A stretch of DNA of 64,000 nucleotides from Bilabrum cf. latius (GCA_965178125.1 OZ237763.1:1-64000); one strand, 5' to 3'. Numbered from the stretch's first letter, positions 2,990 through 64,000 are shown. Numbers and translations: made by a program. Notes: a model not told the origin generated them from the letters alone.

Positions 2990-4583
2990 ATGAATATTAT
3001 CCGGAGCATGGCAACGTTCAATGATACTGATTATACCCCTATGAAAATGCCAGCATTGTCTCCGGTGAGTTTTGACTACTGAAGTTTTTGGATTGTGGCA
3101 GATCAGCTCCTCCTGCAACAAGTGCCGAGGCTTGCTGCTTTATCCAATCCCACACGAGCCAATGCACGAATCTTAGTTGCTTTTCTAGCTGATTGCACAG
3201 ACCATGGAGCACGGTCGTATCAAGGAATGGCAAGTTGCTGAAGGGGATGAGCTGTCCCCCGGGATGGAGCTTGCTGAGGTTGAGACGGACAAAGCTAGTA
3301 TTACGTTCGAGTGCCAAGACGACGGCTACCTAGCGAAAATATTTGTTGAAGCAGGTGCCGGTGATGTTGCGGTTGGGGACGTGATTGGGGCGATGGTAGA
3401 GGACGAGGAGGACGTTGCAAAATTGGCTGGACTCACCTTGGATGAAGCTGCGGCGGCTGCTGGCGGCGGTGGCGGCGCCGATGCGCCTGCACCCGCTCCC
3501 ACACCAGCCCCGGCCCCGGCCCCGGCTCCGGCTCCGACGCCCTCTCCAGCCGCAGCATCCGCGGCAGGCTCCTCCCCGGCACCCGCCCCTTCTTCCGCCG
3601 GAGGGCCCGTCCGCGCAACCCCGCTCGCCAGGACGCTCGCACGGGATGCCGGGCTTGATTTGGTGCAGCTTGCAGGGGCAGGTTCTGGCCCTGAGGGCCG
3701 CTTGGTGGCGGACGACGTGCGCGCTGCCATCGAGGGCGGGGCGGCTGCTGTGGTGGGTGACCAGGCCCCGGCCCCGGCCCAGGCACAGGCAGGGTACGGG
3801 CAGCAGGGCCAGGGGGTGGCTCCGCAGGCTGAGGCAGGAGCAGCAGGGGCGGGCGGCTGGTTCCCGACCCGGGGTGCGTTCACGGACATGCCTCACGGTC
3901 CTGGCCGATCTGAGTGGGCCGCTGCTCTGACAGCCAGCAAGCGGGACGTACCTCACTACTACCTGACGGTGGACGTCTCCATGGATGCGGCACTGGCGCT
4001 GAGGGGTAGGCTGAACACCAGGCTGGCCCAGGGCAAGGGGGATGCTCCCGCCCAGGTGTCATCGCACGATCTGGTCGTGAAGGCCTCGGCTCTGGCCATG
4101 CGAGACGTGCCCGAGGCCAACTCAGCCTGGCTGCCCGAGGCGGTCAGGCAGTACCACTACGTGGACGTGGCTTTTGCGGCGCAGGGGCCCAGTGGCAGCA
4201 CGAGCCACCCCGTACTGGTGGACGCAGGCACCAAGGGCCTGGGCGAGCTGGCTGAGGCACGGAGCAGGCTGCAGCAATAGGCGGCGGCGGGTGAGCTGCA
4301 GGGTGACGAGGCCCAGGGGGGCACGTTCACGGTGGTCAACTTGGGTAGGTTCGGAGTGAGGCAGGCCAGCGCCATTGTGCGGCCCCCGCAGTCCTGCGTG
4401 CTTGCGCTTGGGGCGGTGCAGAGGCGGGCTGTTCCGGACGGTCCCAATGGCGGCGTGCGGCCGTCGTACGTGCTGAGCTGCACGCTCTCGTGCGACCACC
4501 GCACCGTGGATGGGGCGGTGGGCGCCGCTTGGCTGCAAGCCTTCAAGGCCTACCTGGAGGACCCGGACACGATGCTGCTGTGA
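2990..4583 (+). CDS. DLAT: Pyruvate dehydrogenase E2 dihydrolipoamide acetyltransferase-family protein (one in-frame TAG)
   Basis: MPALSP|TMEHG across intron 3065-3200; lipoyl motif VETDKA; E3-binding ATPLAR...GSGPEGR; catalytic domain GGTFTVVNLG...TLSCDHRTVDGA. The TAG at 4278-4280 is followed in frame by AAAGELQGDEAQGGTF. Ends TGA at 4583. The start codon is uncertain, and an E3BP/PDHX-like paralog is possible. Confidence 0.88.
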
Positions 4584-4746
4584 GTGGTAGAGAGACAGGG
4601 ACGAAGGAAGCCACGGCTGTGCGGCTGCACGACCATTGAGTCTGCACAGGATATGACCTAGAATTGCAATAAGCACACACACCGAAGTGCATCCGGATAT
4701 GTCTGTCCATCAGGCTCGGATCTATCAATCTGCGAACCTGGCCCCT

Positions 4747-6621
4747 TCACCCTCGCTTGGACGAAATCTCCCTGGCCCTCCTCACTGCGAACCTGGCCCT
4801 GGCCCTCTGCAGCAGCCACTGGGACCTGGCATCCGCCTCCATTCCGCCGGGGCTCAGCCCTCCCTTGCGACTGGGCAGTGGCGCCTCAAGCACTGCGCGG
4901 GCAGCCGCCAAGTCTTCTGGCCAGCCCTTGGAGCTCTCCTTCTGTGCCTCAGCGGCGCCGGCGCCTGCCCCTGTAGAAGCCCCATCCCGTTTACCGGCAG
5001 GCTTCGATTCACTGCCTGCTCCTCGCCCCGGTCTGGCTTCGAGCTCATCTCGGCCAGCAGCTGGCAACTACCCCGCCAGGGCGGCCTCAACCACGGCACC
5101 AACCGATGCACCCCCCTGCAGCCTCTCCCTCACGGCCTGTTCCCGCACCTGAGGTGCCACGTCTAGCACGCTCGCCACGTTCCTGTCCAGCGGAGAAGGA
5201 CTACCAGCCGCTTCCATGCCTCTGCCCAGCACAGCCGGCACGTCCACCCGCCCTAGAGGCCGGCCCAGGTCCGTCCTCAGCCCAAATGCACCCCCCGTCA
5301 CCACGGACAAAGATAGGGAAGGCAAGCCAAGGAACCCTGCCCCAGCTCCCGCAGCGCGCGCCCCGCCAGCGCCTGGGAGCGAGGGCGAGTCTCCGCGCCT
5401 GCCAGCTGTGGTTTGTCCGTCTAGCCGCAATACCAAGGCGTCTGCATGACCAAGCGCCGAGTCGGCGGGCGGCATGCGCACCCCATCCGGCCACTCGCCG
5501 GCTCCCTACGAGGCGGCAGGTACCGCTGCCTGCGAGCCCGCAGCGGTGCCTCCTGAGGCCCCGGCTGACGGAGAAGCGATCAAATCGGCCCCGCACATGG
5601 GACAGGCCGCTCCGGTGGCTCGGATGCCCACCCACCGCACCAGCAGATCCGTCCGGAACACATGCCCGCAGGACGTGCGCACGGCATCACCACCCGGCCC
5701 CACCCGCACCATGGAGATCCCGCAGACGAGACCATTCTAGTCCACCGCCTCCCACAGCCTCTGCGCCTCTTTCAGCCTGCCCATGACCCCCACGTGCCTC
5801 GCGTAGTCGCCCACCTTGGACAGCAAGGCCCAGGCACGGCCCAGCGCAAGCCACAGGAGCCCCAAGTGCATCACTCCGACACCACGCTCCATCAGACCGA
5901 GCTGCAGGGCAAGCCAATCCTATGCCACGCTCAGAAACAAGGTGCTGACATCGACGGCGCCGTCCAGGGCCAGCGTGATTGCAGGAGCGGAAGGACCCCC
6001 TGCCAGGCCGCGCGAAGCTGTGTGCATGGCGATAGCAGCCGCGTGGGCCCCATCCAGTGCAAGGTAGTATGACACTAGCGGCTTCGCGCCCCCCATGAAC
6101 ATTATAGCCAAGTACCCCAGAGCTATCGAAGCACATGCAACCAGCACGCTGCACGACATGATGGCTGCGTGCTGGTGCGGAGGGAAGCCAGTCAGCGCCT
6201 AGCCGTGCAACTCCACGGCATCAAGCCGCCGACGCGCCAGAGCTGCCAACTGCTCCAAAACTATGATAATACCGACCCATCCCGCCCATAGAAGCGCTTC
6301 CACGTCGAAATGAACCCCAAGCAGTGCAGCTGAGAACACCAGCTTCAGCAACACAAAATTCAACGCTTTCTCCTATAGCAATAGTTTTTCATCCGAAGAA
6401 AGCGTACCAAATAATACTGAACTTATTGTAAAAAACACCCAGCCGCATGCTACCGCAATAAAATTACCGGCAAGCACGATTTTGGCTGGGTTGTGCAAGA
6501 CGTCTGCTAGCATGGCTTCCACGGTGAACGATCCGCCCTCCCGAAGGCACCCCAGTGCAAGAGATAGAACTAGAAAAACGGTTGATACTGCCGCGTAGCC
6601 TTTCCATGAAAGGATCGACAT
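4747..6621 (-). CDS. HRD1/AMFR-like multi-pass membrane protein with a degenerate RING domain, about 624 aa (6 in-frame TAG)
   Basis: Five ORF fragments share one frame, joined by TAGs at 6373, 6199, 5920, 5737, 5506 and 5068; TGA at 4747. N-terminal TM region (VLFGTLSSDEK, like HRD1 FFGxLxxxE), then CGIS...SCGHVF...LVRW...CPMC. Confidence 0.7.
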
Positions 6622-6740
6622 GGTGGTACAGGCAAAATACTCGGAAGGCAACGTGGAGGCTGCTGATCGCGGCTCAACGAAGGTTCCTGCCGAACCTGAA
6701 GGTCGAATTTGAATCTCGAACCAGTAGATAAGCCCCTGCC

Positions 6741-8411
6741 ATGGACTGGGAAGTCGGGAGGACTCCAGTGGAGTTGCAATTTAAGGTAAGCCTTGATTCA
6801 CACTTACCTTGATAGTAGCGCGCCGGGTACACGCATTTTGGAGGAGGTATCAGTTGAATCATTTGCGCTGTCCGCAGGCAGAAAATTAGCTCATAGAGGT
6901 GACTCCACTGCGCAATTCCAGCCTTGTATACAATGGATACAGCGTGAGGCATTCTTGTGTAGTTTTAGATCGCAGTAAAGCCGGTATTCCTCTAAAATTC
7001 CTTAACTTGCGCTGTCGATGCATATCGCAGGGAAAGTTTGGCCCGTTCGCGCGCGGCAAGTCGACGAAGCTCCCTTTGTTCCTGGCATTGCTGCTCAAGT
7101 CAAGAGGAGTTCTTGCCGTTCGGTGCCCGGCTTGGCTGTAGCTCGATGCATTGAAGCACGTGCTGCGAGAGGAGCAGGATGAGAATCGAAAGCACGAGCT
7201 AGCACCGCTACCAGAGTATTGGGAAGAAATGGCGGCACTTATTCTAAAGAAGTGAGTGATTATGGTGCGTTTTGTTTGATGAACGTGGGTGCAGTGCATA
7301 CAGAGCATTTGAACCACACACGAGCCATATACTCAACTAGGGTCGCCAACGCAGGGCCCCAGAAGACGTAGCAGCCATCTCAGACGTGAGGCAAGTCTTG
7401 CAGAGCATTCGTGAGGTTAGAAGAGCCAAAATTTTGCGCGGCCGCGCCACCCTCCTCGGCCTGGCCGAAGCAGAGCCCCTCCCGTTCTCGGCGGGGATCC
7501 CTCACGTGGGCCGCCGGGAGCTGCTGCTGCTTCAGGACGATTTCCTCGGAGTGCTGGACGACCTGCAGTCCGTGCACCAAACCAAGCTGGAGCTGGAGCT
7601 GAGAGAAGCCCGCGAGCGAGCGGAGGAGGCGCAGGCCAGCAGGTCAGGCGGGGGGCTCCGGGCGCGTGGCTCTGCTGGTGCGTCCTCGTCCTCGTCCTCG
7701 GTACCGAGAGGAGGGCAGTCCACGGATCCTGCATCGGGGAGTGGGGGCAGGGCGAGTGGGGTTGCAGGGACTGGATTCGGCACGCCCGATCCTGTCGCGT
7801 ACCGCGGCACTGGCAGCAGCACTGGGGCAGGGGACCCTGCCGTGCCCTCGGGCCCGGGCAGCGCCGCGTTTGGGCTCAGGACAGGGGAGGCCACTCCTGC
7901 CCCCAGACTGGGTCCGGGGCTCGGGCGCGCGACGGACCCCCGTCCGCTGGCCTCGGCCTCCATCGGAGGCGCTGGCTCTGGCAGCGGGCCTGCCCCTGGC
8001 GGGTCTGTGCTGACCACCAACATGAGCGCGGTGACGCAGGCGAGGGCACACCGCACCGCGCAAGACCTCAGGGCACGATTCCATCGAGCCAGGGCTAGCG
8101 CTAGCACCGGCACAGCTGCCAGTGGCGCTAGCTCGGGGGCAGTGTAGCTTGAAGAAGAAGGTGGCCAGGGCAGCAGCAGCAGCCCCAGCTCGTCGTCATC
8201 AGCAGCGGCAGCTGATGAGGCAAAGGGGACGGCAGCTCTGATGGAGGGCACGGGCGACCCCAGGGTAGGCTAGAAGAGGCCAAACGAGGGCGACCTCGCG
8301 GAGGATGTGGGGGAGCGGGCGGGAGACTGGGGCGGCGAGCAGGAGCCGTTGCAGCCATCCGGGGACGCGGCTGGGAGCGAAGAGGGGCAAGGGGCAATGG
8401 AGGAGAGCTGA
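6741..8411 (+). CDS. PSF2: GINS complex subunit Psf2 with a long low-complexity C-terminal extension (4 in-frame TAG)
   Basis: Exons MDWEVGRTPVELQFK|AEN*LIEVTPL...|GKFGPF...LPLFLALLLK...PAWL*LDAL...PLPEYWEEMAALILK|KAPEDV...IREVRRAKILRG match Psf2/GINS2 motifs. Introns 6786-6877, about 6944-7030, and 7252-7354; TGA at 8409-8411. Confidence 0.85.
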
Positions 8412-9638: not shown

Positions 9639-12146
9639 TCACAGCTCCGGCAGAGTGGCGGGCACCGCGGGCGCCGCTGCCCCCTCGAATCGCGCCATGA
9701 GCGCCGCGGCCTTGGCTGCGATCCCGTCCGGGGTCAGCTTAAAGTGCTCGTACACTGCTGGCCCCGGCCCGGACAGCCCGAACGTGTCCACGCCGTGGTG
9801 CCCGTGCCCGAACCGCTCCCACCCCAAGGAGCACGACGCCTCCACGGTCAGCACCGGGGTCCCCTTAGGGAACACAGAAGCCCTGTACTCCGGATCCTGC
9901 TCCAGGAAGACCTCCTGGCAGGGCAGCGACACGATGGCCACCTTCTTGCCAGCGGCGGCCCCGCCCTCCAGCTGCAGGGCCTTGGCTGCCTCCACGCACA
10001 GACTGACCTCGCTGCCAGAGGCGCACAGGATCACGTCGGGCTGGCCCTCGCCCTCCCCGCCCTGCAGGGTGTATCCGCCCTTCATGGCGGCCTCCACCGA
10101 GGAGCCCTCCAGCTGGGGTAGGCCCTGCCTCGAGAGGGCCACCACGGCGGGGTGCCCGGGGCGAGTGGCGTAGTTGCCGTACGAAGCCGAGACCTCGTTG
10201 CCGTCTGCCGGCCTGTAAACATCCATGTGGGGCATGCCGCGGAGCATGAGCAGCATCTCCACCGGCTGGTGCGTGGGCCCGTCCTCGCCCAGGCCGATCG
10301 AGTCGTGCGTCGCCACGAAGAGCACGCGGAAGTGGGACAGGGCAGACACGCGCACAGCGCCCGCGGCGTACCCAATGAAGTTGAGGAACGTCGCCACGAA
10401 GGGTAGGTGTCCCCCGAAGGCCATGATCCCGTTGGCGATGGCGGTCATGCCGTGCTCCCTCACGCCGAAACGGATATACCTCCCGGCGGGGGTGTCCTTC
10501 TAAAAGTCGCCAGTGATCTTGAGCAGCGTCTTGTTGGACGGAGTCAGGTCGGCAGAACCGCCGAAGAGCTCCGGCAGCTTCTCGGCCAGCGCGTTGAGGG
10601 CCTTGCCGCTGAGGCTGCGTGTGGCTTCCTTCTTGTCCGCGGGTGTGTACCTGGGCAGGCAGTCCACGATGTCGGCGGGCAGCTCCCCCTTGAACCTCCT
10701 CTCGATCTCCGCCCCCTCCTCGGGGAACTTGGCCTTGTACGCCTCGAAGGCAGCGTCCCACTCCTGCCTGGCCTTGACGCCCCTCTCGGCGGCCTCCTTG
10801 TAGTAGGCCAGCACGTCCTCTGCCACCACGAAGGACTCCTTGGGGTCGAACCCGAACTTCTCCTTGGTGGCTGCAAGCACTTCATCGCCCAGGGGCGACC
10901 CGTGCACGCCCGCGGTACCCACCTTGGAGGACCCGAACCCGATGCGGGTGGACACCTTGATGATGGAGGGCCTGGAGGTCTCCTTCTTGGCCTCCTCCAC
11001 GGCCCGCTGGATGGCACCAATGTCCTCGTCACCATCTTCCACCACCTGCACATGCCACCCATAGGCCTCGTAGCGCTTGGCCACGTCCTCGGTGAAGCTC
11101 AGCTCCGTGGACCCGTCGATGGTGATCTTGTTGTCGTCGTACAGCACCACGAGGCTCCCCAGCCCCCAGTGTCCCGCCAGCGAGCTGGCCTCGCTCGAGA
11201 TGCCCTCCTGCAGGCAGCCGTCCCCGCAGATGACAAACACGTTCGAGTCGAAGATCTCGTGACCCTCCTTGTTGTACGTGGCGGCCAGGTTCTTCTGGGC
11301 CAGGGCCATGCCCACCGCGTTGGAGATGCCCTGCCCCAGCGGGCCGGTGCTCACCTCGATGGCCGGGTGCAGCTCGTTCTCGGGGTGGCCGGCGGTGCGG
11401 CTGCCCAGCTGGCGGAAGGCCTTCAGGTCGTCCATGGTCATGTCGGAGTGGCCAGTGACGTGCAACATGGAGTAGAGGAGTGCGCACGAGTGCCCGTTGG
11501 AGAGCACGAACCGGTCCCGGTTGATCCACTTGGGCTGCGAGGGGTCGTAGTTCATCTGGTTGCCCCAGAGCACGTGGGCCATGGGAGCGCAGCCCATGGG
11601 AGCACCTGCAAACACATACAGAATAGAGGTGGGTGGGGCAGCTACTAGTGGGCATTCGACACCGGCACGCAAATACACGAAATCAGCAGACAAAGGCAAC
11701 TGCGCGTCACATGCCAGTCTCGCTTCCAACCTGGCTGGCAGCCCAAATTGGAAGCGGAAACATCGGTAGGGAAGAACGGCTATGCTGAACCATCGGAGCT
11801 GTAACGGTGGAGAGCGCATGCTGGTCGTGTGCAAAAAGGGGCGACGTGTTGCAGTCGTCTGCCGCGAACACTCGGCGACGTCACCACAACTCATCCAAGT
11901 CCGACCTCATTGGTAAGATTATAGATGTAAAAGCACTACAATGGTTAATCAATTCGCGCGCTGCCTCGACAGAGCAAGGCCTATCCCTAGATGGCGCGTC
12001 GATGCTGTGCTTCAGTACATCTCACCTGGGTGTCCGCTGTTTGCCTTCTGTACCATGTCTGCTGATAGCAACCGCACCGTGTTGATGCACTTGAGATCAA
12101 TCCCATCGGCTTTCGCACCCGCGCCACCGCTTGCAGCTCCTGCCAT
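9639..12146 (-). CDS. TKT: Transketolase (1 in-frame TAG)
   Basis: INTVRLLSADMVQKANSGHPG|APMG across intron 12025-11606; NRDRFVLSNGH; TPP-binding motif GDGCLQEG; GDF*KDTPAGRYIRFGVREHGM; THDSIGLGEDGPTHQP; TGA at 9639. Confidence 0.97.
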
Positions 12147-15196: not shown

Positions 15197-15277
15197 GCAT
15201 CGCATCCGGAATATGATCTATAGATCTACACAAAATTCTCACAGCAACTGAATGGGCAATCTGTCAGTAGAATCAGT

Positions 15278-16858
15278 TCATGCACGGGGCGCTTTGTACT
15301 GTGCCACATCATCGAACGGCACCGTCACCACTGTCCTATCCTCCTCCATCTGCACAGTCGCGCATTGAGTCCGCTTGTCCCGCTGCAGCAGCACCCCTAG
15401 CTCCCCCCGCTACTCCCCTCGCAGCATCATCACCTGCCTGTTCCCCGCTCCACCGCTGCTTGCCTTGGGCAGCACGGTACACATCTACTCCTCCCGCAGC
15501 TGCACCGCAGTGCCCGCGCTCCCTTCCCCGCCCAGCTCCACGCGAACAGTGGCCATCCCCGGCGCAGGCAGGTCTTCCACCCACCCCTTGCAGTGCAGTG
15601 CATCCCTGCCTCGCACAACCACTCCTCGGGCCATGACCCGCACCCTTATTCCAGGCCAGGCCCAGCCACCCTTCCTCTTGCTCTCACTCCTGGGAGCGGT
15701 GGACGGGCCCGTCCTCCGCGCCTTCTTGGAATCGGGCTGGGGCACCTGTACAGCTGTGGGCTCGCTGGACGCCTGCCCTCCTGCCTCCGGCCTGCGTCGC
15801 TTGCTACCGGCCCTTGCATCCTTCCCGTGGGAGCTGGCAGCACTCCCGGCCGACTTGGCTCTGCCTGACTGCGCGTGCCCCTGTCCCTCATTTGCATGCA
15901 CCGCAGCCCCCTGCACCCTTAGGCTGGCACCAAGCCCGGGGTGCAGCACCACACGCTTTTCGCCCCGGTGGCGCCAGCGCATGCCAGCTGGCACAGATCG
16001 GACCTCATCGTCCTTACCATCGCCCCCCCCACCGGCCTCCTCCTGCTCCTGCGCAGCCACCTGCATGGCCGCCGCAGCCACAGCCTCGGACTTGCTGCCG
16101 GCTGAGCCCTTCGCTTTCGGACCCCCACTGGATGCGACGCTGCGGAATCTGGATTTCGCGCCATCGGTGGCCAATTTTATGAGGTCTTGCAGCTGCTTGG
16201 AGGAGGGCTCCTCGCCACGGACCTGCTTTTCGGACGCACCCATTCCGCGAAGCATTGCATCCCCGAAATCTTCAACGGCAATACCAGTCTTGCCTCCAAC
16301 CGCTTCACTTTCTGCAGCAAGTACCCGAGACATTAACGATGATCCAACCATTCTCTTCACCTCGTCGCTTCGATGCTGTGCAAGTGACTTTGCTGGGTTG
16401 TCGGCCTCTGGCAATGCGGCCAGCTCTTCTGCCAGAGTGGGGTTGAGGCTTCCAGAGGAAGTTGACACGCGAGCTTGTCGGGCGCGGAGAAGCAAAGGCC
16501 CTTCTTGCTTCGTTTTAGCGCGAGATCCGTCCTTGGCTCCGAGCATGTGGCCACTTTTTCGGAATAGTCTACTTCTCAGGTCGCTAGCTGTCCCTCGAGC
16601 AGAGACAGAGGCTTCTATTGCTGGTTTGATCGCACCAGGCAGGGTAGGCGGTATAATCATTGGAATTGTAAGCTTCTCTGGCTTGGGTCCCTCTTGTGTT
16701 TTGGGAGCATGCCCAATGGACCTCGAAGCAAATGCCGCTAGGCCAGCATCTTCCCTCGCATCTGTGCTTACAAACTATAGAGCAGACGTGGCCGATTCCA
16801 ATGATTTAGGTACTGATATTGCCGGTCGTTTTGAGGCCTTGAAACGTACAGCGGACAT
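15278..16858 (-). CDS. GPKOW: G-patch and KOW domain splicing factor (Spp2/MOS2/GPKOW family; 3 in-frame TAG)
   Basis: IAVEDFGDAMLRGMG (Spp2/MOS2 G-patch) and WAWPGIRVRV. After the TAG at 15485 comes the C-terminal KOW MCTVLPK...VMMLRGE*RGELGVLLQRDK...VPFDDVAQY; TGA at 15278. Confidence 0.8.
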
Positions 16859-17125
16859 TGAAGGCTGTGAACACCCGATCGTCCCGCTCGTCTAGTTCGG
16901 TTGCGTGTACTTTTGGACGTGTCGAGGGTTTGCGTCAAGACTTATATCTACCTTTGCATAGGATTTGTGCGTTAAACAGGCCACCAGCTGGCAGACTTGT
17001 CTATTTTGTAGCCTTTTTGCTGGCGACAACTGGTTAGTTGCTGAGCAAGCACTGCTTTCAGCGCTGGACACAGTGGCCCGTTGCACCCAAAACAGCAGTC
17101 AAAGACTCAATCGATCTTGGAGGAA

Positions 17126-41341: not shown

Positions 41342-42590
41342 TCACCCCGTCGTCCTCTCTGCCTTCCACCTGAGCTTCTCACCCGCCATGAGAGGGACCA
41401 CACTGCCCCCCGCCTCGAACGTGTAGCTCGCAGGCACCTCCCACTCCACGCGCCTGAGCACCACCCCGCCCTCGGTGTCGCCCTTGCCCTTGCTGCCATC
41501 GCCCCCTGTCGCCTCCCCCTTCTCCTCCTCGCCCCCATTCAGAGGCATCTTGTAGAACCTAGGCCCGTGCTCGCACGCAAACGCCCTCAGGTGCTCCAGA
41601 CAGCCCTCTGTCTCGAATGCAGTCGCGTACAGCTCCAGGCAGATGGGCGCAGTGAAGATGCCCGCGCACCCGCAGGAGCTCTCCTTCCTCCTCACCTCGT
41701 GGGGGGCGCTGTCGGAGCCCAGGAAGAACTTGCTGGACCCGGACTTGACCGCCTCGCACAGCGCCCGCCTGTGTTCCTCTGCCTTGAGGATGGGCAGGCA
41801 GTACATGTGCGGCCGCACGCCGCCGCGGAAGATCTCGTTGCGGTTGTACAGCAGGTGCTGCGGAGTGATGGTCGCTGCCACGTTGGGGCCCTGCTCCTTG
41901 ACGAACGCCACCGCCTGCGCCGTGGTGATGTGCTCCATGACGACCCGCAGATCGGGGAGCGCCGCGACGAGAGGCCGGAGCTTCTGCTCGATGAACTCGG
42001 CCTCGCGGTCGAACACGTCCACGTCGTCGTCCGTCACTTCGCCGTGCACGCACAGGACGAGGCCAAGCTCTGCCATTCGCTTCAGGGTCGGCATGACCTT
42101 CTCGATGGACGTCACACCGCTGTCGCTGTTGGTTGTCGCGCCGGCAGGATACAGCTTGACTGCAGCCACGCGACCGGACTTCACAGCCGCATCGATCTCT
42201 TCCGGTGGGGTGTTGTCCGTAAGATACAATGTCATCAAAGGGTCAAAAACAGAACCTGAACCCATGGCTGCGGTGATCCTCTCGCGGTATTTGAGCGCCT
42301 GCTCGGTGGTTGTGACCGGCGGCTTCAGGTTCGGCATGATGATGGCCCGCTTCATTATTCCAGGCCAAGCTGCACGTGATTGCACTTAAATGTCTCGAGC
42401 TACGTGCAAATGCCAACAGGTACGGGCAGAATCAAGGGAAAGGACATTTTCGGAACTCACACTTGCCGAGAGATGTTAGAGCCTCGCCATCCCTCAAATG
42501 CAAATGCCAATCATCAGGGTAAGGCAAGGCAATGTCAGAGAGTTCTTCTTTGCTTGCGGTTGCGCCAGATCGGCCAGCAACGCCCGCCAT
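41342..42590 (-). CDS. pyrC: Dihydroorotase, standalone homodimeric (PyrC/URA4 type)
   Basis: PDDWHLHLRDG, RAIIMPNLKPP, KLYPAGATTNS, VHGEVT, MEHITT, YCLPILK, FFLGSDSAPH; one intron at about 42385-42460/42467; TGA at 41342. Confidence 0.96.
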
Positions 42591-45294: not shown

Positions 45295-47286
45295 ATGTTC
45301 ATGGAGAAAGGTTCATTTGGTGACGGAGGCGGATCTCGTGGTGGCGATTCGCGAGGGTTCGGCGGGGGTGGATCTGGCTTTGGCGGTGAGACTTGCAGAC
45401 TTGTGCTTGCATAGACTCTTAAACACGCCATGTGGCTTGGATTCATACCCATTTTTGGATAAGTTGCCTCATTTCAACGAGAGATCGTTTGAGGCATGAT
45501 CGTGTGGCCTGCGTTACCCAGCGTTCTGCACTGCTTTCGGCTGCCAGTTCGGTCGGCCACCACTTCTAAGTGGGCGTCGACGCCTCCACATCGCGCAATA
45601 TTGATCACACCAAGATATCGCTTAAAGATTGCTCGTATCTTCTTAATCTTTGGAGCAGGTTCAGGGTTTGGCGGCGCTGGTGCACTTCCTGGAAGTGGCA
45701 GCGGGGACACGCTCGAGCGCGAGAGGGAGCGCGCAAAACAGAAGGCTAGAAGTCGAGCAATGGGTGGAGGCACCGGATTCTCCGCTACAGGAAGCACACC
45801 AGCGGTTCCACAGTTCTCCGCGCCCCGTTCTGGGGCCACCGGGTTCGGAGGCGGTTTCGGCGGTTCGTCTGGCCCTTCCGGAGCCGGGGCCGGCAGCGGT
45901 TTCGGCTCGTTCCGCTCCAGCAAGCCGGCAGGATCTGGATTCGGTGCCGGTGGTCGCGGTGTGCTGGCCGCGGGGCGCCGAGGCGGGGGGAGTGCCCGCG
46001 GGACGGACATGGGCGTTGAGGAGGACGCTGACCTCGAGGCGATCGAGATGCCCGCCGAGAGGGAGAGGGGTAGGGAGAGGCAATCGGAGGACCGGGGGAG
46101 CAAGGGGGATCGGGGAGGCGCGGGCGGGATCATGAGTCCCCTGAGGAGCGCCCCAGAGGACCACGGCAGGGGACAGGGGGGGGGGCATGGCGGGGCCGTG
46201 GCGGGGGTGCGGTCGGCTCCGCCGGCGCCTGCAGCTAGCATGGAGGACCGGGGTGGAAGGGGTCGGGCGGAGGACGGGGCCGCTGGGGGCAGGGGCCGGG
46301 ATGGCGGGCAATGGGAGGACGGGCGGGGGATGGGCAGGGGGCCTGTGGGTGATGAGGAGGAAGACGACGACAGGGCGGCGGGTGCAGGGCGTGGTGGTGC
46401 AGGGGCCTCCAGCGGGGCAGGGGCCGGTGGTCCGGACGGCGGCGGCGCGGGGGCAGGTGCAGGCGGCGATGTGCCCATGCGCGGATGGCCCAAGGTGAGG
46501 GTGGTGGGCACTCGAGCCCTGGATCTGTCCCAAGCAGGCAGGCAAGCGCTGCTGACCACCCCCTGTCCCCCCGAGGCGGGCATCCTGCAGTGCTACATCG
46601 AGCGGTCGGGGGGTGGTTTCTTCTCGAATGTCAAGTACAGCATGTACATGAAATCCGGCGACGAGTTCTTGATGGCGGCCGAGAAGAGGAGCGGGCAGCG
46701 GACGAGCAACTTCACCATCAGCAGTGACCCGAGTGACCTGGACAGGCACGGGAAGCACTTTCTGGGCAAGGTGCGGTCCAACTGGGTGGGCACTGAGTAC
46801 ATGGTGTACGACGAGGGGGCTGCACCGGGGAGCGGCGAGAAGGGCGAGAGGAGAAAGGAGCTCGCCATCGTGACCTACGAGAGCAACGTCATGGGGGCGA
46901 GGGGGCCTCGCAAGATGAAGGCAGTGCTGCCGGAGGTGGGGTACCCCAGCCTCAAGCCGAGGCCGTTTCAGCCCAGGGAGGGAGAAGAGGCCATGCTGGA
47001 CCTGTACAAGAAGGGCCACCTCGAGGGCATGCAGCAGCTCATGAACAAGCCGCCCAAATGGTCCGAGGACGTGGGCGCCTACGTCCTCAACTTCAACGGG
47101 AGGGTCACCATGGCGTCGGTCAAGAACTTTCAGCTGGTGTCACCGGACGAGCTCGAGACGGTCATCGTGCAGTTCGGCAGGGTGGGCAAGGACCTGTTCA
47201 CCCTCGATTTCAGGTTCCCGCTCAGCCCGCTGCAGGCGTTCGGTATCGCGCTTTCCAGCTTTGATTACAAGCTAGCGTGCGAGTAA
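45295..47286 (+). CDS. Tubby-like protein
   Basis: Gly-rich N-terminus (intron 45386-45658); tubby domain LQCYIER, FLGKVRSNWVGT, GPRKM, LNFNGRVTMASVKNFQL, QFGRVG, QAFGIALSSFDYKLACE; ends with TAA. Confidence 0.95.
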
Positions 47287-48004: not shown

Positions 48005-51000
48005 ATGGCAGCTAAAAGCGCACTACTAGCTTGGGCAGCACTGCTTGTGGCCCCTGCTGACGCACAGCTCGCGTTTACGAACCCCTCGTATACGTTCCAG
48101 CCCGTCAGGAGGAACGATCGTCTATATATTGGGCAGGTTCGTGCTATTGACGGTCCAAATGACCTTGACATGGGCGCTACCATCTCGTATCGCATCGTGG
48201 ATGGTGCGACCACGTGAGTTCTGCGCTGTCCGGTTTCGTGTTCCTCGCCACACCACGACTCGATATACACAAACACGCCAAGCGTTCGTTCTTTCATTGA
48301 TTACTATTTTCATTTAATCTTATTTCGCAGCGAAGACGTCGACTTCGAGATCCATCCTCTGACTGGTCGCCTCTACCGCCTACCGACGACGGGTTGGATC
48401 ACTTCTCACACGATCCGCGTACAGGCACGACTTGAGAGGCCTGGACTACCAATCCAGTTTGCCTATGCCTTCGTGGTAATCGCTTTCTAGGACCAATAGC
48501 CCCCGATTGTCCATATTTCGGTCGGATCCTCGGGCCCGTCGTGCGCGACGAACTCGCAAGGAAAGTTCTGGTGCTGGGGATAGTGCTAGGCCGGGCCTTC
48601 CACCTACTGTCCATATGAGGGGGAGCAGAACGATCTGCGGATAGACAACGCTATTTTACCTGACGTAGCCGCCCTGCCCCCCGTTCAAACCAGCGATCAA
48701 GCCGTCCAAGTTGTCGGTCTGAAGCGCACCGGGCGAGCAGACCAAGCATCGTGCTTGCTCACGAGGTCTGGCAACGTTCGATGCTGGGGTTCCGGTTCGT
48801 ATCTTCCGTACAACAGTGCTGCAGACGTTCCCTCCCCTACTTCTTCGCCCGCGCGTCCTCAGTACAGCCAGACGATGGAGTCGGCCCACGGGCTGAGCAA
48901 TCGCCACAACGCCCGGGTACTCCAGCTGTATGCCGGCGAATCGAGTTTTTGCGCCGTCATTGACCAGACCATCATGCTGAATGGAGTTTCACTCTTCTCG
49001 CCCACTCGAGCTTCAAACATTGAATGCTGGGGCTCCGGGGGCGTGGTCAAAACGTGGTTCTCTCGCGGAACAATTCTCGTGCCTTCCTACCCGGGGCAAC
49101 TGGCCAGGCAGTCGGCGCAAGGCGCTGCTGTCGGCGCCAACGCCGTTTGTTGGCTAGGAGAGAGCCGATACGACCGGTCGATCAGGTGCTACGGCTCCAG
49201 TGTGGCTGGCAGATCGGGAAGCGAACCCTTTCTGGTGACGAGCTGGTCACCAAGCGGCCTGTATCCGTTCGCGATCGATGCGAGCTTCGACCGGTACTGC
49301 GTCTTATACAGCAGGATCACACTTTCACCCGTCGAGGTATAGGTCTATTGCTTCGGAACATTCACCGACCCCAGGAGGGCGATGGACAAGAACATTTCTG
49401 TTTCGAGTCTGTCTCCGACAACCCAGCGGATCCCTTCATTCAGCAGTTTCTACAGGGGCATGGTGGGCACACCAGTGGGCATTGCCGTCATGCGAGGAGG
49501 ATTTTGCGTGGCGGTAGATCCGTAGCGGGCTGGATCGAACCATATCTACTGCAGTCGGGCCGCGAGGGAGACTGACAGCATCGGCACGACACACGACGAC
49601 ACCGTCGACCTGTTCGAAGCAACCCCGCCCTAGAACCTGATTCACGCGTACAGCGACATGCATCTCTACGAGAACCTTGCAAACCTGCAGGTCACCGACA
49701 TCAACAACCCGAACCAGCGGGTGACTTCAATCTCCGCTGCGGGATGCTCCGTGTGTGCGACCATCGACGGGATCACTGGCACGGGCGGGGACGTACGGTG
49801 CTTCGGATGCGATGGAATGGGCTACTAGCTGGATACTGGCTCAGTGGCCCAGCAAGGGAGGCTAGGCTACGGGCCTTCGGTCCCTACTCTGGGCACCACA
49901 TCGCCCGCGTATGCTTACGGCCCGCACGACTTCAACGGCGCGACCGACTTCGCAGCGCGAGGTCAGCAGCCCCGCATCGAGTTTCCAGCCCAACGCCAGG
50001 TCATCTAGGTGGATGAAACCAATGAAATGTCTGTTTAGATCTTTGAGCGTGTCCAACTGTCGCAAATAGACCCTTCCAGCAGCGGCCTGGTCTTCGAGCT
50101 CGAGTCCAAGGAAGCCTACTCCGACAACAGGCACTTCCGGATGAATCCCATCACTGGAGCACTATCAACCAACGGGACATGGCCGTTTGATTACGAATGG
50201 ATAAGCCAGCACAGATTGGATGCGCGGTACAACTTGGCCATGATCGTCCGGGACTCTGTGGGCGTTGACACGGTCGAGTTCACCATCGAGGTGCAGGACG
50301 CGCCTGAGCCTCCCATCTTCGTCACTCCCATCCCGGCCGAGGTGGAGCTGGGTAAAGTGACTGAGAGCGTGGGTGCACACGGAACTCAGAGCGTATTCGG
50401 GATCCCTGCATCGCAAGCCACAAGAACTGCCACGGGATTCTCGGTCGAGCTCGGGCTGGCTCTGCGGGGTGCCAACGGCAACCATGGCACCGTGATTGTG
50501 GCCCTCATGCACAGCGAGGGACCATCGAACGGACTGCAGCTCAGTCAGGTCGATGTGATGATCACACTGCAAGCAACGAGCACTACCATCGAGGCAAATG
50601 TACCCCCAGATGCCACAGGGGAGCTCAAGGGCGGCGAGTACACGGTCTTCCTCAGAGCAGCCGACCGAAACACGGGAGTGGAGCAGGACACGTGGGTGAA
50701 AGCAGAGATCATGGTCCCTTGCAAGACGGGCAGCATCTTTGGAACTTCGTCTGGGGAATGCAGCGAGTGCCCGGTGGGCACTGCTGCCTCCGCAGATGGC
50801 ACAGAGTGCATCCTCTGTGACGTAGACAGCTACCAGCCGCTGGCCGGACAGACCCAGTGCATTCGATGCGACTCGCACCTGGATGCGGCCAGGTGGCTGA
50901 AGCACTCCAGCCCAGGACAGTCCACAGAATGCCCCGTGTGCTCAGAATATGCCCAGGCAGTCACTCCCGAGCGGGACTAGTGCCTGTGTCGGGCTGGCAC

Positions 51001-54000
51001 CTACGAGGTCCGTCCGAGTGAGAGCGCGGTGGGGCCTGCGCTGCAATGCAATAGAGCAGCAGCGCTTGGCACGCTTGGCACTCCTTTTACCAGCTTTGCC
51101 GAGCACTCGTTCCCGGACTTGGCGGCAGGGGAAGAATTCCGGCTGCTGGAGCCCAGATATGGGCAGTCGACCACAGTTCAGCTGTTTCCAGTTGCATCAG
51201 GATTGACCCACACCATTCGGTTGGTAAATTTGAACCACGGTGCCGAGCAACAGGGGCTGGGCCTGGCTGAAGCGGGGGCTAACGTCGCCAGCAACGAGAT
51301 CTCCGACGCGTAGCCAGGCGTGCGCTACAATATCGTAGATGTCAAAAGCGACGAATAGCCCGAGCTCAACTACTGGGACCTAGAGCCGCTGCAGCAGGCC
51401 ATCAGGAACAGCACTGAGGGGGGAGCAATGGTGCCAATGTCCGAGACAGGCTCAGCACTTAGGGTGCGAGTGGTGGTTGATGACGGTATCGAAGGAAACC
51501 CATGCGAGGAGGGGCAGGAGCTGTCGATCGAGTGCAGCGACAGCCCCGCAAGCGCAGACTTCTAGATCATAATCACCGACATATTTGACCGCCCCCACTA
51601 CAAGCTGGCCGGTAGTACATTCACCATTAGAGAGAACCAGGCAGGTCCACCCACGGCCTCGGGAGACGGGCTTCAGTGGCCCGAGGCACCAAGGGCCAAC
51701 GTGGCACCTGACGTGCAGGAGGGCTAGCTGTGGACATCGGGGCAGCAGGGTCGGCCATCCATCTTCGAGAAGATCCCGCAGTTCTACGATCCTGCAGGCC
51801 CACTAGCGGCTGTCTTCAGTGACCTAACATTCGGAGGTGCATCCAGCATTAACTTCGAGGAGCTGCCAATCGATAGCGGCACCATTACGAGCAACAGGGT
51901 CGTGTTCGAGTCGCATTTCACCATCAACCAAGGACCCCCGGTTCCCTTAGGACCTGGGGGTCCTCTTGCGCTCCCACCGATCCCTATGCCTCCCCTGGCA
52001 CCTGGAGCACCCCCGGCTCCGTTGCCTATTGGACCCGCGGGCGAGACCGTAACCATCACAATCGAGTTCGTGGACGAACAAGAGGCCCCTGTGGAGGTGG
52101 ACGTAACTGGGGGGCCCATGAGCATCGAGGAGAACAAACCGGCTGGTACGCTGGTTCAAGGGGGAACCATATCGGTGCTGGATGAGGACAGCGGGGCCAT
52201 GGTCAAGTGTCAGGTCACCGGCGCGCAGGCAGCCTTCTTCCAGGCAGCTCCCGTCGGTATTGCTGATGCAGACAGGTTCCAGCAGCTTACGCCCGCAAGT
52301 GAGACCAACATCGCAGAGGTGAACGTGGGCGCAGTGGGCGTGTGGGAGCTGCGCACTGCGGCTGCGCTCGACCACGAGGACGATGCTTTGGGCTTGTCCG
52401 CTGACGGAAGCCTGGATGTGACGATCAAGTGCACAGACAACACCGGGCTATCAACCACGCTAGATCCTCGCGCTGTGCACGTGTACAACGTGAACGAGAT
52501 GCCCCAGATCTTGGGTCTGGAGGCAGGCGGCACTTTCACGACGCTCGTGGAGAACGTGCCGACTGGCACGGAGGTGGGCGTGTTTGTGGCAAGCGACCCC
52601 GATGCCGGAGATGCTGGCACTCTGTCGTTTAGTCTGTCCGGTGCAGACGCATAGTCCTTCACCCTGGTGCCCCTGGATGCATAGTCATCTTCCTCTGGAG
52701 ACAACGTCCACAAAGCCTCAATACGGGTGGCATAGGGTACCTCTATTGACTTTGAGACGCAGAGCACTTACACGATCACAGTCACAGCCAGCGACGATTC
52801 GCCAGGAGGCATTATTTCAGAGCGCCGCCGGCAGTTGCTCGAGGCATCCACGGACATCTCGATCTAGGTCTTGGATGTGAACGAGCCCCCAGTGATCAGC
52901 ACCGAGGCATCTACGGAGTACACGGTGCCAGAGAACAGCCAGACAGGGACTGTTGTGACTGGACAACCGCAGCAGGCAAGTGACCCAGATGCAGGCGACA
53001 TACTGACCTGGGGCATCGTCGGGGGCAACGGGGCTAGCCATTTCGCGGTGGACTACTTAACAGGGGTGATCACCGCAATCGCTGGAGCTTCGCTTGATTT
53101 CGAAGACCAAAATATGCCTAGTCCGTTCGAGATCGTCCTGAGGGTGGCGGACCCGGGTGGGCTGACGGACGATAGGACAATCACAGTGGCAGTGCAGGAC
53201 GTGCAGGAAGCACCCTCCATCTCTGCCTCAGACGTGCAGCCCGTGCCAGAGAATTCTGAGGGGCGGGTGACTTTTGCCACTATCAAAGTGAGCGATCCAG
53301 ACGCTGCTGATACTCACTTGGGTCTGGGGCCTTCACCGTCACCAACGCCCTCTGTGTCAGCATCGCCAAGTAGCACGGCTTCTGTAACTCCCACTGCGAG
53401 CGTCAGCGGCAGCCCGTCCACATCGCCCACTGCGAGCGTCAGCGGCAGCCCGTCCACATCGCCCACTGCGAGCGTCAGCGGCAGCCCGTCCACGTCGCCC
53501 ACTGCGAGCGTCAGCGGCAACCCGTCCACATCGCCCACTGCGAGCGTCAGCGGCAGCCCGTCCACATCGCCCACTGCGAGCGTCAGCGGCAGCCCGTCCA
53601 CGTCGCCCACTGCGAGCGTCAGCGGCAGCCCATCCACATCGCCCACTGCGAGCGTCAGCGGCAGCCCATCCACGTCGCCCACTGCGAGCGTCAGCGGCAG
53701 CCCATCCACGTCGCCCACTGCGAGCGTCAGCGGTAGCCCATCCACGTCGCCCACTGCGAGCGTCAGCGGCAGCCCATCCACGTCGCCCACTGCGAGCGTC
53801 AGCGGTAGCCCATCCACGTCGCCCACTGCGAGCGTCAGCGGCAGCCCGTCCACGTCGCCCACACCATCGCCATCGCCGTCCGCAGCGCCTGCTGGGACGG
53901 TCGTGTCTTCCACCAAGATCGCGCAGGGTACGGGCGGGCTACCTGACACATTCCCGCAAGCCGGTGATGCGCTCGGGCGCACGGCAGGTGTGGTCGGCGA

Positions 54001-60454: not shown

Positions 60455-61271
60455 TCTAGTCATGGCTTTGCAAAGGTGCCCTATGCCTGCCAGGTGTGGA
60501 GGGCAAGTTGTTGAGGGAGGATGGAGGAGTAGGAGGCAGAAGCACTGCGGGCGAGGAGGTGCCTGAAGTGCAGTTTAGGTACAGCATGCGAGCCTTGGAT
60601 CCGTCTGCTCTCGGCCTCGGTGATGCCCTTTCTCTAGCTATGCCTGTGCCCTTGAGGGTGAAGGCGTGCCAGAGAAATGGCACTATTCGAGGGCGGATGG
60701 GTCCCACTGGCGAGCTGGGTGAGGGCTGGTGTCAGCGCACTGGGTGCGTTGCGCAGGCTATGCTTGGCTCGCCCACATTTGGTCCTTGTCTTCGGATAAA
60801 GGCCTTGGCTCCATCGTGTACGACTAGGGGGAGGAGGGGGGTTAACAGTTGCGATGGCAAGCGGGGGTTTGTGTCGCGTGAGGGGTGATAGTATAGGTAC
60901 CAGGGGCGAATGGAGCGAGTCTCCGTAGTCCGGAGTCCCGATTTCGGAATCGCTGCCTAGGCTAGAACACACGTCGTTTACCTGGTAGATGCTGCGCCCC
61001 TCTTGATGTGTTTGTGAGCTGCCCCTCAATCTACGTATGAACTGGATTTTGCTCAATCAGCAATCAAAATCTACGTCATTTTAATTATTTTCGGACTGCG
61101 ACAACTCTTTACGTAACCGTACCGGAGTCTCCCTAGGCAAGGCCCGAAAATGTCTGACTTCGGATTGTGGACCTAGGCCCAGAGGAAGGGCAATTGATAA
61201 TTACTACCAAGAACCTTATAGTTATAACTACCTGTGCACCTCAAGCAATCCTGCAAAATAACGCAATGCAA

Positions 61272-64000
61272 TCATTCCTCCCCCTGTCCAACTGCCGACT
61301 GTGCCGCCGCCAGCGCCGCGTATAGCCCGTTCCTCCTGACCAGCTCGTCGTGCGTACCCAGCTCCTTCATCCTGCCGTTCTCAAGCACCGCAATTTGGAA
61401 TGCGTCCTGGATCGTCGAAAGCCGGTGCGCCACCACAACGCTGGTGAGCGCGCCGAGTCCCGCCGCGCCTCCCATCGCCTGCTCCTTGTCCCCACCATTC
61501 GCGCCCAGGATCCTGTTGAGCGCGTCCTGCACCGCCTTCTCGCTCTTGGAATCGAGCGCCGCAGTGGCCTCGTCGCAGAGGAGGCACGCGGGCCCGTCCA
61601 CCAGCGCCCTCGCGATGGCCACCCTCTGCTTCTGTCCCCCGCTGATCTGAGACCCGCTCATGTTGCCCACTGGGGTGGCGTACCCGTGCGCAAACGCCCG
61701 GACAAAGTCGTGCGCCGAGGCCGCCTGCGCCGCGCGCACCATGGCACCGTCGTCCCCGGTGTCCCCCGGCACGGGGTCTTTCTTGGTCTGCAGCCCAAGG
61801 TCAGGCTCCGGCTTGCGCGCGTCCTCCTTGATCCCGTACTTCACGTTGTAGGCCACCGTGTCGCTCCACAGCTGCGGCTCCTGCTGGATGAGACCGACCT
61901 TGCGGCGGAGCCACGCCACGTTGTAATCGCGCAGGTCCCTCCCGTCCAGCAGCACCTTCCCCTCGTCTGGGTCGTAGAACCGCATCAGCAGCTGGATGAT
62001 GGTGCTCTTGCCCGACCCGGAAGGACCCACGAGCGCGGTCTGCTTCCCCGGGGGCATGTCCAGGGTCACCCCCTGCAGCACCCTGACCTCGGGTCTGGAG
62101 GGATACGCGAAGGTCACGTCCACCAGACGGAAGTGCCCCTTGTATTCGCTATCCTCGGGCACGAAGCCGTCGTGCTGCCAGGGACCAGCGGCGGCGGCCT
62201 TCTCCTTCCTGACCAGCTCCTTGGCGGCCTCGGACCCGCGACCCCACCCCTTCGAGTGCGGCATGTTGCGGCCCTTGGGTGTCCGGTCGATCAGGTAGAA
62301 GATGCTCTCCTTGGCTGCCTCGGCCCGCCCCTGGTCGCCCAGGAAGGACGACGCCTGCCCGGCGCCCGTGGCGGCAAAGGCCAGGGCGAAGAAGCAGCGC
62401 GTGATGCTGCAAAAAAGGGAGAGTCAAGAGAAAACAAGGAAGGATGGAACAGGTAGCTCGGGGTGGGTGGCAAACACAAGTACAAGAGAGGGGCTAGCAG
62501 TGGGAAGTAGCCGGCGATCAGCTCACTCTTCGAATCCCCCGATCCATCCCTTGTCCAGGAACTGTGCCCCGGCCCAGAATGCGAGTGCGTAGAAGGAGAA
62601 GATGACCAGCTGGTTGGCGCCCATGGCCAGCCCCCCCGTGAGCCCCTTCTTGATCCCGATGGCGGCCTGGCCCTCCAGCTTCTGCTCGAACAGCCGCTGG
62701 ATGAAGCCCTGCATGCGGAAGGACTTGACGATTCGGATGGCGGTCATGGCCTCGGTGGCGACCTGGGTGGCAGATTCCACCCCCTCCCGGCCCGCGTCCT
62801 CCAGCCCCAGCTAAGCCCGCATCTGCATCTGGCCCGTGATCATGATCAGCGGCACGACTCCGATGATGACGAGTGACAGCAGCCACGTGGCGGTGAAGGC
62901 GATGATGAGGCCGGCCAAGAACGTGAACATGATCTGCAGCTGCGTGCCCAGCCTCTCCCCCGAGGTCAGCCGCACCAGTGTGGCGTCCATGGCCAGTCGT
63001 GCCACCAGCCGCCCGCTCGCGTTCTCCTCCCGGTCGAAGAAGGACACGTCCTGCTCCATGATGGCCACCATCGTGGCGGCTCGTAGCCTCGTGGTGAGCC
63101 TCGAGCCCACGTAGTCGAACATAGACACCTTGATGTAGTCGGCGATGGCCGCCCCGATGGCCAGGCCGGCGAACCCCAGGGCATAATTGCGCACCCCGGT
63201 CTCCAGCTGCGAGTCCACCGGGTTGTAGTACACCGTGATCATCTCAGTCAGGATGATGGCGTAGACTGCGGGAATGAGGGGAGAGAAGGGACGGGGAGTG
63301 GCAGCAAAGGAAATGAGGTGCAGGGGTGGGGGTGGGGGCAATTCGAATCCAGCGCGAGCCTACGGTGCATTGCAGTGCGGTGCTCATCGATCTCACCGGG
63401 GAACACGGAGCCCATGCACGCGGCCGCCACGACGCCCGTCCAGAATGCGCACTGCTCGTCCTTCTGGTACTCGAGTATGCGAGATAGGTTCACGGGCGCC
63501 CTCGATGCGGTGACGAGCATGAAGAGCAACTTGGCGTCTCCGCTGGTGGAGGGCAGCACCAGCGCGCCCTCGGTCACGGCGGGCCGCAGGTCCTCGTCCC
63601 TGGCCTTGCCTGCCTTGAGCCTCTGCAGCTTCTGCTCCGCCAGCTTGGCCGCGCTGGCCGTCTCTGCGTCCTTCTTGTCTTTGCCCTTGCCCTTTCCTTT
63701 GGGGGTGCTGCCCTCGGCCTCCGCGGCCGCTGCAGCGTCTGCCTCTTCCTCGCCCGCGGCCTCCCCCCCCCCACCGTCCTTCCTCTCCTTGGCCTCCATC
63801 TCGAGGGCGGCCTGCGCGCTGGCAGAGGCTGCCTTCATGTACTTGTCCCCACTGCGGGGATGAGCCAGGTAGAGCCCCTGGGGCAGCTTGCCCTGCACCG
63901 CGGCGCGCACCGCTGCCTGGAACCCCTCCGAGTCGGGAGCGGGGAAGGGCTCCTGGCCCACGGCCTGGGCCTTGAGCGGGTGGCACTCCAGACCCGTCCA
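61272..64000 (-). CDS. ABCB/MDR (P-glycoprotein-like) ABC transporter, C-terminal half; 5' part lies beyond the window (1 in-frame TAG)
   Basis: TMD2 with FFDREENASGRLVARLAMDA; NBD with FAYPSRP, GPSGSGKST, QEPQL, ISGGQKQRVAIARAL, DEATAALD, VAHRLSTI. Introns 63396-63266 and 62526-62407; TAG at 62811; TGA at 61272. Confidence 0.95.

Follow-up and report, generated by a model that had tools for sequence, protein, structure and literature searches.

The stretch of DNA analysed here, positions 1 to 64,000 of one strand of OZ237763.1 from Bilabrum cf. latius (GCA_965178125.1), is referred to throughout as the window. It very probably belongs to a GC-rich (rich in guanine and cytosine), intron-bearing, oxygen-respiring microbial eukaryote in which UAG no longer serves as a stop at all and encodes glutamine (Gln, Q), with UGA as the usual terminator and UAA as the other. 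An earlier annotation of the window, hereafter the original prediction, had proposed this code from the sequence alone. The assignment of UAG to Gln is supported by three kinds of evidence from sequence comparison, namely a conserved column in transketolase, ten sites at which residues of a sister organism lie opposite TAG, and the alternation of TAG with CAG between copies of tandem repeats.

Sense use of TAG and the remaining stop codons

Under the standard code the longest open frame in the window is 1,093 codons, and reading TAG as a sense codon yields two frames of 4,430 and 4,078 codons, here called big1 and big2 (Table 1). As a control, freeing TAA leaves the longest frame at 1,093 codons and freeing TGA gives 1,206 codons. 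Both giant frames are interrupted by TAG only, as had been claimed (22 and 26 TAG, with neither TAA nor TGA). Sixteen coding stretches comprising 16,126 codons hold 75 in-frame TAG, no TAA and no TGA, and the other two frames of the same stretches have means of 88.5 TAG, 42 TAA and 265.5 TGA. In-frame TAG is about as common as out-of-frame TAG, or as any triplet that is not under selection, and the other two stop triplets are excluded. Since the coding frames were delimited by TAA and TGA, the zero counts for these two triplets arise partly by construction, which is true neither of the frame lengths nor of the homology that runs through TAG.

Counted over 14 stop-to-stop frames there are 85 in-frame TAG, to which the ABCB membrane exon adds two and the PSF2 exon one, in line with the earlier estimate of about 80. 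Two of the 85 are intronic (PDH E2), and a few near N-termini, such as those at SDHA amino acids 14 and 28, may be non-coding. Twelve genes carry in-frame TAG (PDH E2, RING, PSF2, transketolase, g12266, GPKOW, big1, PIF1, g35338, SDHA, big2 and ABCB) and four carry none (fibrillarin, Arp, dihydroorotase and Tubby); the count of 12 affected genes given previously was thus correct, and the accompanying total of 18 genes becomes 16. Homology runs on both sides of in-frame TAG in transketolase, PDH E2, PSF2, GPKOW and ABCB. The claim that TAG lies within housekeeping genes whose homology continues beyond it is borne out for the first four of these, with the amendment that only one PDH E2 TAG is exonic (4278-4280), the other two being intronic. 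The PDH E2 alignment to solved structures in the PDB extends to the chain end (647/647).

A check that is free of homology agrees with TAG as sense. In the 40 codons after 79 TAG sites, GC at the first, second and third codon positions (GC1, GC2 and GC3) is 0.66, 0.58 and 0.66, with no TAA or TGA, and after the 15 terminal TGA or TAA stops the corresponding values are 0.46, 0.50 and 0.55, with a further in-frame stop triplet in 11 of 15 cases.

These observations bear on the proposal that the standard code is in force and that TAG is removed or changed before translation, by U-to-C editing or within tiny introns, or that the affected frames are pseudogenes or assembly errors. The two intronic TAG in the PDH E2 frame are what such a proposal would predict. 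Elsewhere, however, alignments cross TAG sites without gaps, the affected genes include the essential single-copy genes transketolase, PDH E2 and PSF2, and the presence of 75 TAG with no TAA or TGA is not a product of decay or sequencing error. Gene calls in independent public assemblies also break at the same sites, and we consider an explanation of this kind extremely improbable.

The usage of TAG varies between genes. The in-frame Gln codons comprise 450 CAG, 103 CAA and 75 TAG, so that TAG makes up about 12% of them. TAG occurs once or not at all in Arp, dihydroorotase, the ABC ATPase exon, the SDHA core and transketolase (GC3 0.82-0.92), and reaches 5-9 per 1,000 codons in weakly biased, fast-evolving frames (GC3 0.61-0.72), its density dropping as GC3 bias rises. 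This dependence on GC3, taken with the turnover between TAG and CAG in sister genomes described below, agrees with TAG being a minor Gln synonym generated from CAG by C-to-T change.

Gene ends are dominated by TGA. Among the 15 that could be scored, a small sample, 14 are TGA, one is TAA and none is TAG, an extremely skewed usage. In eight of these genes (PDH E2, SDHA, Tubby, Arp, GPKOW, fibrillarin, dihydroorotase and transketolase) the family alignment comes within 13 residues of the end, which agrees with the earlier statement that no gene with a recognisable C-terminus ends in TAG. That UGA is still a stop, as also predicted, follows from the same gene ends and from its absence in frame against the off-frame mean of 265.5.

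The retention of UAA as a stop was likewise part of the original prediction, and the rival to be weighed here is a code of the table 6 type, in which UAA and UAG both mean Gln (as in Amoeboaphelidium, Hexamita, ulvophytes and many ciliates) and UAA is too rare to be seen at high GC. Consistent with such a code, TAA ends just one gene and TGA the other 14, and TAA is the rarest of the three stop triplets in the window. Against it, the TAA of the Tubby gene lies exactly at the C-terminus shared by the family, the last residue of the predicted protein aligning with the last residue of five of the six solved tubby chains in the PDB. Moreover, if UAA shared the meaning of UAG, about 17 in-frame TAA would be expected from the ratio of CAA to CAG (CAA share 0.186), and none is seen in the 16,126 codons (P = 2e-7), set against the off-frame mean of 42. 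The Tubby end and the lack of in-frame TAA therefore point to a code that has changed UAG only, rather than UAR-to-Gln as in Amoeboaphelidium and others, and a dual reassignment has hardly any probability.

The amino acid read at TAG

Transketolase has a single TAG, and it falls in a conserved column. When 120 homologues are aligned, this column holds Q in 112, S in six, D in one and a gap in one, the gap belonging to P0028, a fragment of 365 residues that is 98% identical to the window and ends exactly before the TAG codon. In GPKOW, the TAG at 15410-15412 lies opposite Q of human GPKOW (PDB 7dvq_y). Repeats within big1 provide an internal comparison, as one site in a 41-residue repeat reads TAG in five copies and CAG in five, and one position of a second repeat is TAG in one copy and CAG in one.

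Further evidence comes from protein fragments related to big2. When the first 1,116 residues of big2 served as the query of a full HMMER search, the short fragments P0241, P0242 and P0245 (80-88% identical) and P0247 (100% identical) were found, and a cluster look-up added P0304 (555 residues, 86% identical over 533). P0304, P0241 and P0242 each lie on a 6,199-nucleotide (nt) contig of one public assembly collection that is separate from the window, and P0247 lies on a 22,531-nt contig of another collection. The 80-88% fragments are pieces of the orthologous gene in a sister organism, cut up by a gene caller that uses the standard code. P0247 more likely represents the organism of the window itself in a separate assembly, because it is 100% identical. 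A metagenome scan with P0304 found no relative, and one with P0002 returned 80 loci, all at most 62% identical.

The residues of P0304 opposite big2 TAG codons 91, 94, 122, 124, 375, 436 and 472 are Q, Q, Q, Q, Y, E and Q, and those opposite codons 607, 921 and 1116 are Q (P0241), Q (P0242) and S (P0245). Close orthologues therefore have Q at seven of ten TAG sites, Y, E and S at one each and L at none, and each of the three residues other than Q is one base change away from TAG. Conversely, sister fragments end opposite the window codons CAG, GAG and CAG. P0304 and P0247 both end before big2 TAG codon 537, and the start of P0241 immediately follows codon 597. That fragments break where the window has TAG (in transketolase and at big2 codons 537 and 597) indicates that the reassignment is shared with a second genome, and TAG and CAG replace each other freely, both among repeat copies and across the sister genomes. 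Sense use of UAG and its reading as Gln, the central claim made at the outset, are thus upheld by the transketolase column, the sister sites and the repeats.

Several observations weigh against a complete and uniform reassignment to Gln. At one repeat position of big1 a single TAG stands against 14 GAG. In alignments to PDB chains, TAG lies opposite K of mammalian E2 in PDH E2, opposite D in the two distinct chains shown for PSF2, opposite M at GPKOW 15485-15487 and opposite L or F of ABCB1 in ABCB. In 53 pairs aligned from 24 distant homologues of big2, TAG is matched by S in eight, T in seven and Q in six, and the sum of BLOSUM62 scores is higher for serine (Ser, 26) than for Gln (1). Termination at UAA is seen in a single gene of the window. 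TAG also occurs late in three frames, at codon 4035 of 4078 in big2, 1439 of 1464 in g35338 and 972 of 1024 in PIF1, and occasional termination at UAG may take place in such frames, where it lies in the last 25-52 codons. A tRNA scan of the 64-kb window gave no match, so the decoding tRNA is not in the window, and eRF1 is not among its genes.

Some of these points would be accommodated if UAG stood for a residue other than Gln, namely Ser as in Scotinosphaera, or glutamate, tyrosine or leucine (Leu). Ser is the best-scoring residue among the distant big2 homologues and is present in six of the 120 transketolases at the TAG column, S, E and Y each occur at one close-orthologue site, and the repeat position with 14 GAG is a further point in favour. 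The distant homologues were tried as a residue test similar to that of Codetta and were set aside as non-discriminating, the close orthologues and the conserved column being used instead; the test is treated as uninformative because its sites are variable and lie in a protein rich in Ser and threonine. The positions opposite TAG in the PDB chains of PDH E2, PSF2, ABCB and the cadherin repeats of big2, where TAG sites likewise face variable residues, are also too variable to inform on the residue. In contrast, Q prevails among the close orthologues and in the transketolase column, L appears in neither, sister fragments end opposite CAG twice, and TAG and CAG stand at 5:5 in the repeats. We regard a residue other than Gln as very unlikely, and leave it what probability it has because of the distant big2 homologues, given that UAG is reported to mean Ser in Scotinosphaera (PMC11687900).

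The late TAG codons raise instead the question of a dual UAG, which would mostly be read as Gln and would terminate in some contexts such as near 3' ends, as in Condylostoma or Blastocrithidia. In its favour are the three frames named above and the fact that only 15 gene ends could be scored. However, TAG stands at none of these 15 ends, eight of which have a recognised family C-terminus, coding composition continues after all 79 TAG sites, and in GPKOW homology extends beyond a TAG that lies 43 codons short of the end. A dual role is quite unlikely on this evidence.

For the full reassignment to Gln, we posit a mechanism modelled on that proposed for Iotanema (PMC5304391). UAG would be decoded by a tRNA-Gln with anticodon CUA that pairs with UAG and not with UAA, and which could have arisen by a single mutation from tRNA-Gln(CUG), and eRF1 would have lost its affinity for UAG with recognition of UAA and UGA retained. 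A tRNA restricted to UAG would have to bear the anticodon CUA, and there is precedent for the selectivity of such a tRNA, as the tRNA-Gln(CUA) of Tetrahymena is described as reading UAG and not UAA (PMC5304391). The concentration of TAG in weakly biased, fast-evolving genes is as expected of a minor Gln synonym supplied by C-to-T change of CAG.

Gene content and lineage of the chromosome end

The window begins with 185 copies of CCCTAA, which is a (TTAGGG)n telomere read on the minus strand and marks it as the end of a nuclear chromosome. Directly inside the telomere, at 1113-1498, lies a 58-bp subtelomeric tandem repeat (6.7 copies, 98% match), followed at 1500-3000 by a subtelomeric stretch of lower GC (about 0.55) with short open frames only and no family match. 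Beyond the telomere the sequence has a GC content of 55-69% and is gene-dense, with genes on both strands. Searches of Pfam, NCBIfam and the PDB led to the recognition of 16 genes, of which PDH E2, a RING/synoviolin-like gene, PSF2, transketolase, GPKOW, a PIF1-like helicase, fibrillarin, Arp, dihydroorotase, SDHA, Tubby and ABCB were identified by family, the other four being large frames that lack a complete family assignment (Table 1). With the 135-nt GT..AG intron of PDH E2 excised, the lipoyl domain regains its conserved start, M-P-A-L-S-P-T-M. Together, the telomere, this intron, SDHA and the mitochondrial type of PDH E2 show that the window is nuclear and comes from an intron-bearing eukaryote whose mitochondrion respires. 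An Rfam scan of the 64-kb window gave no match.

Table 1. Positions of the telomere, genes, frames and individual sites in the 64,000-nt window.
Feature	Position	Strand	Remarks
Telomere (TTAGGG)n	1..1110	-	CCCTAA x185
PDH E2, mitochondrial-type	3010..4583	+	Pfam; exon 1 3010-3065, GT..AG intron 3066-3200, exon 2 3201-4583; TGA end at family C-terminus
RING/synoviolin-like membrane protein frame	4747..6780	-	6 in-frame TAG
PSF2 (GINS) exon	7031-7251	+	In-frame TAG at 7139..7141; PDB PSF2 alignments cross TAG; PSF2_N match under cut-off
Transketolase	9639..11906	-	Pfam; PDB 761 bits; TGA end
Transketolase TAG	10500..10502	-	Sole TAG of the gene; frame codon 469; inside D-F-x-K motif
g12266, frame of 976 codons	12266..15196	+	No family match; probably membrane protein; 5 in-frame TAG
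GPKOW-like splicing factor	15278..17098	-	Pfam; PDB 7dvq_y alignment; 4 in-frame TAG; TGA end
big1, low-complexity repeats, 4,430 codons	17198..30490	+	22 TAG, 0 TAA, 0 TGA; TGA end
PIF1-like helicase	30631..33705	-	4 in-frame TAG; TGA end
Fibrillarin	33968..35119	+	No TAG; TGA end
g35338, frame of 1,464 codons	35338..39732	-	No family match; 9 in-frame TAG
Actin-related protein (Arp)	40105..41205	+	No TAG; TGA end
Dihydroorotase (pyrC_dimer type)	41342..42385	-	No TAG; TGA end
SDHA	42774..44702	-	TGA at end of family profile; two TAG, confined to N-terminal presequence region
Tubby-family gene	45493..47286	+	No TAG; TAA stop 47284-47286 at conserved C-terminus
big2, surface protein, 4,078 codons	48218..60454	+	RCC1-like repeats, cadherin, FG-GAP, Ephrin_rec_like; 26 TAG, 0 TAA, 0 TGA; TGA end
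big2 stretch with 12 TAG covered by sister-organism fragments	48488..51565	+	Codons 91, 94, 122, 124, 375, 436, 472, 537, 597, 607, 921, 1116
ABCB-type transporter, exons, runs off window	61272..64000	-	Membrane exon: one TAG at variable loop position; ATPase exon: TGA end

The two giant frames differ in content. Nearly all of big1 consists of tandem low-complexity repeats, with PGARPG runs, dozens of KVDEEPAAS units and Pro/Arg-rich units of 41 residues, and it also contains three copies of a module with the motif RYWVGRV; no Pfam family matches it. In big2, the region at about 57000-59400 holds about seven copies of a module of about 105 residues (with the motifs ETRRGNIRF and LGxFPNxDxRF) that Pfam leaves unmatched. 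An upstream exon of big2 is probable because the frame lacks an initial Met and identity to the sister organism is lower before codon 36.

A phase-2 donor, GTGAGT at 7252, closes the PSF2 exon. The downstream frame is kept only if the acceptor is that at 7294 or at 7303, and the implied intron is then very short (43 or 52 nt). This choice would make the TAG at 7338-7340 coding too, and would give the protein a low-complexity tail of about 250 residues that is unusual for PSF2. The RING membrane protein has only a sub-threshold match to synoviolin-TPR and no homologue in a word-indexed protein search, and may be lineage-specific or very divergent. Long open frames also run antisense to transketolase (9543-11804 +, 753 codons) and SDHA (42729-44600 +, 623 codons); these have no family match, are by-products of high GC and could be mis-called as genes.

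As to the affinity of the organism, the best named matches of SDHA are Cafeteria (81%) and Bicosoecida sp. (79%). A quick IQ-TREE analysis of 47 rows chosen from the 120 best matches placed the query with two further sequences and the Cafeteria clade at an SH-aLRT (a branch support test) of 84, and this group fell inside a stramenopile set that was split from green plants at 99; a FastTree of all 121 rows did not resolve its position. Both trees hold top matches only, with other supergroups absent from them, and within that range SDHA leans weakly towards Cafeteria-like stramenopiles. The best named transketolase matches (57-59%, with none named above 59%) are divided among stramenopiles, Balamuthia, fungi and Monosiga, lineages cannot be told apart by the PDB scores for SDHA, and Arp in the Protein Atlas falls in generic actin clusters only, with no lineage signal. 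A stramenopile affinity is, on balance, slightly favoured.

Relation to known codes and implications

The pattern in the window agrees with that of a UAG-only stop-to-Gln code (the Iotanema type; NCBI table 15 pattern) in the sense use of UAG, its reading as Gln, the roles of UAA and UGA and the lack of termination at UAG. UAG and UAA almost always change meaning together and have been uncoupled in few cases (PMC11687900). According to the sources cited, UAG alone has changed to Leu in the rhizarian exLh, to Gln in Iotanema, to Ser in Scotinosphaera and to either Gln or Leu in Protocruzia and the phyllopharyngean ciliates (PMC11687900, PMC5304391). The list that accompanied the original prediction had included Iotanema, a rhizarian and some ciliates, and is to be extended by Scotinosphaera and, by name, by Protocruzia and the phyllopharyngean ciliates (PMC11687900).

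The closest parallel is with the fornicate Iotanema spirale, in which UAG is reported to encode Gln and translation to stop at UAA and UGA (Panek et al. 2017, PMC5304391). It shares with the window the codon, the amino acid, the retention of UAA as a stop and a position outside the ciliates. A tRNA-Gln(CUA) and an altered eRF1, with T32G in the GTS motif, were predicted for it, and its genome was unsequenced as of that paper (PMC5304391). Unlike Iotanema, a member of the anaerobic Metamonada, the organism studied here has SDHA and a mitochondrial PDH E2, 55-69% GC and TTAGGG telomeres, and its SDHA groups with stramenopile sequences.

Among ciliates, Protocruzia tuzeti and two phyllopharyngean lineages are reported to read UAG, and UAG only, as Gln (McGowan et al. 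2024, PMC11687900). As in the window, UAA does not share this meaning, and the variant is described as having arisen repeatedly and independently (PMC11687900). Nothing in the window resembles a ciliate. Its contig is 64 kb or longer and carries a long TTAGGG telomere, GC is high, and there is a 135-nt GT..AG intron, traits in which ciliates generally differ.

Other codes resemble that of the window in part. Amoeboaphelidium protococcarum and the table 6 codes also show stop-to-Gln reassignment in a non-ciliate aerobic eukaryote (cited in PMC5304391, PMC6299283 and PMC11687900), but there TAG and TAA both encode Gln, whereas here TAA is the stop of Tubby and is absent from the coding frames. 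Scotinosphaera, with UAG read as Ser, and the rhizarian exLh, with UAG read as Leu, have likewise uncoupled UAG from UAA in a non-ciliate nuclear genome (PMC11687900, PMC5304391), and are set apart by the residue, with Q at seven of ten close-orthologue sites in big2 against one for S and none for L, and S in six and L in none of the 120 transketolases. Phage 'code 15' also reads TAG as Gln, by means of a suppressor tRNA, and is described as a viral takeover device in bacteria (PMC9523058), unlike the cellular nuclear code found here. Codes without a dedicated stop (Condylostoma, Blastocrithidia, Amoebophrya) differ in that the window has no in-frame TGA or TAA in 16,126 codons.

The code variant itself is known, and its carrier is a further instance of it. 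An independent origin of UAG-to-Gln in this lineage, as suggested in the original prediction, is plausible. In full-text literature, which covers few subscription papers so that a published description is possible, we found no report of a UAG-only Gln code in a GC-rich aerobic non-ciliate or in a stramenopile. It is conceivable, if still short of an even chance, that the window records the first nuclear code change in a stramenopile, in a Cafeteria-like lineage of heterotrophic flagellates, with an independent origin of UAG-to-Gln that kept UAA as a stop, is shared by at least two species and occurs at about 63% GC with TGA-dominant termination. If true, the GC-rich setting would be the reverse of the AT richness commonly invoked to explain the capture of UAR codons, and a chromosome-level assembly would be available in which to find the tRNA and eRF1 changes.

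A practical consequence concerns annotation. Standard gene callers truncate the proteins of such a genome at each TAG, and P0028, P0241, P0242, P0245, P0247 and P0304 are pieces of this kind; annotation, BUSCO scores and phylogenomic matrices will be wrong unless a table with TAG as Gln is used. More broadly, each case in which UAG and UAA are uncoupled tests how a single eRF1 can ignore UAG and yet read UAA. The present carrier is aerobic, GC-rich and assembled to the telomere, and has a sister genome in which TAG and CAG are swapped at orthologous sites, properties that would permit study of the origin of tRNA-Gln(CUA), of the substitutions in eRF1 and of the rate at which new TAG codons spread.

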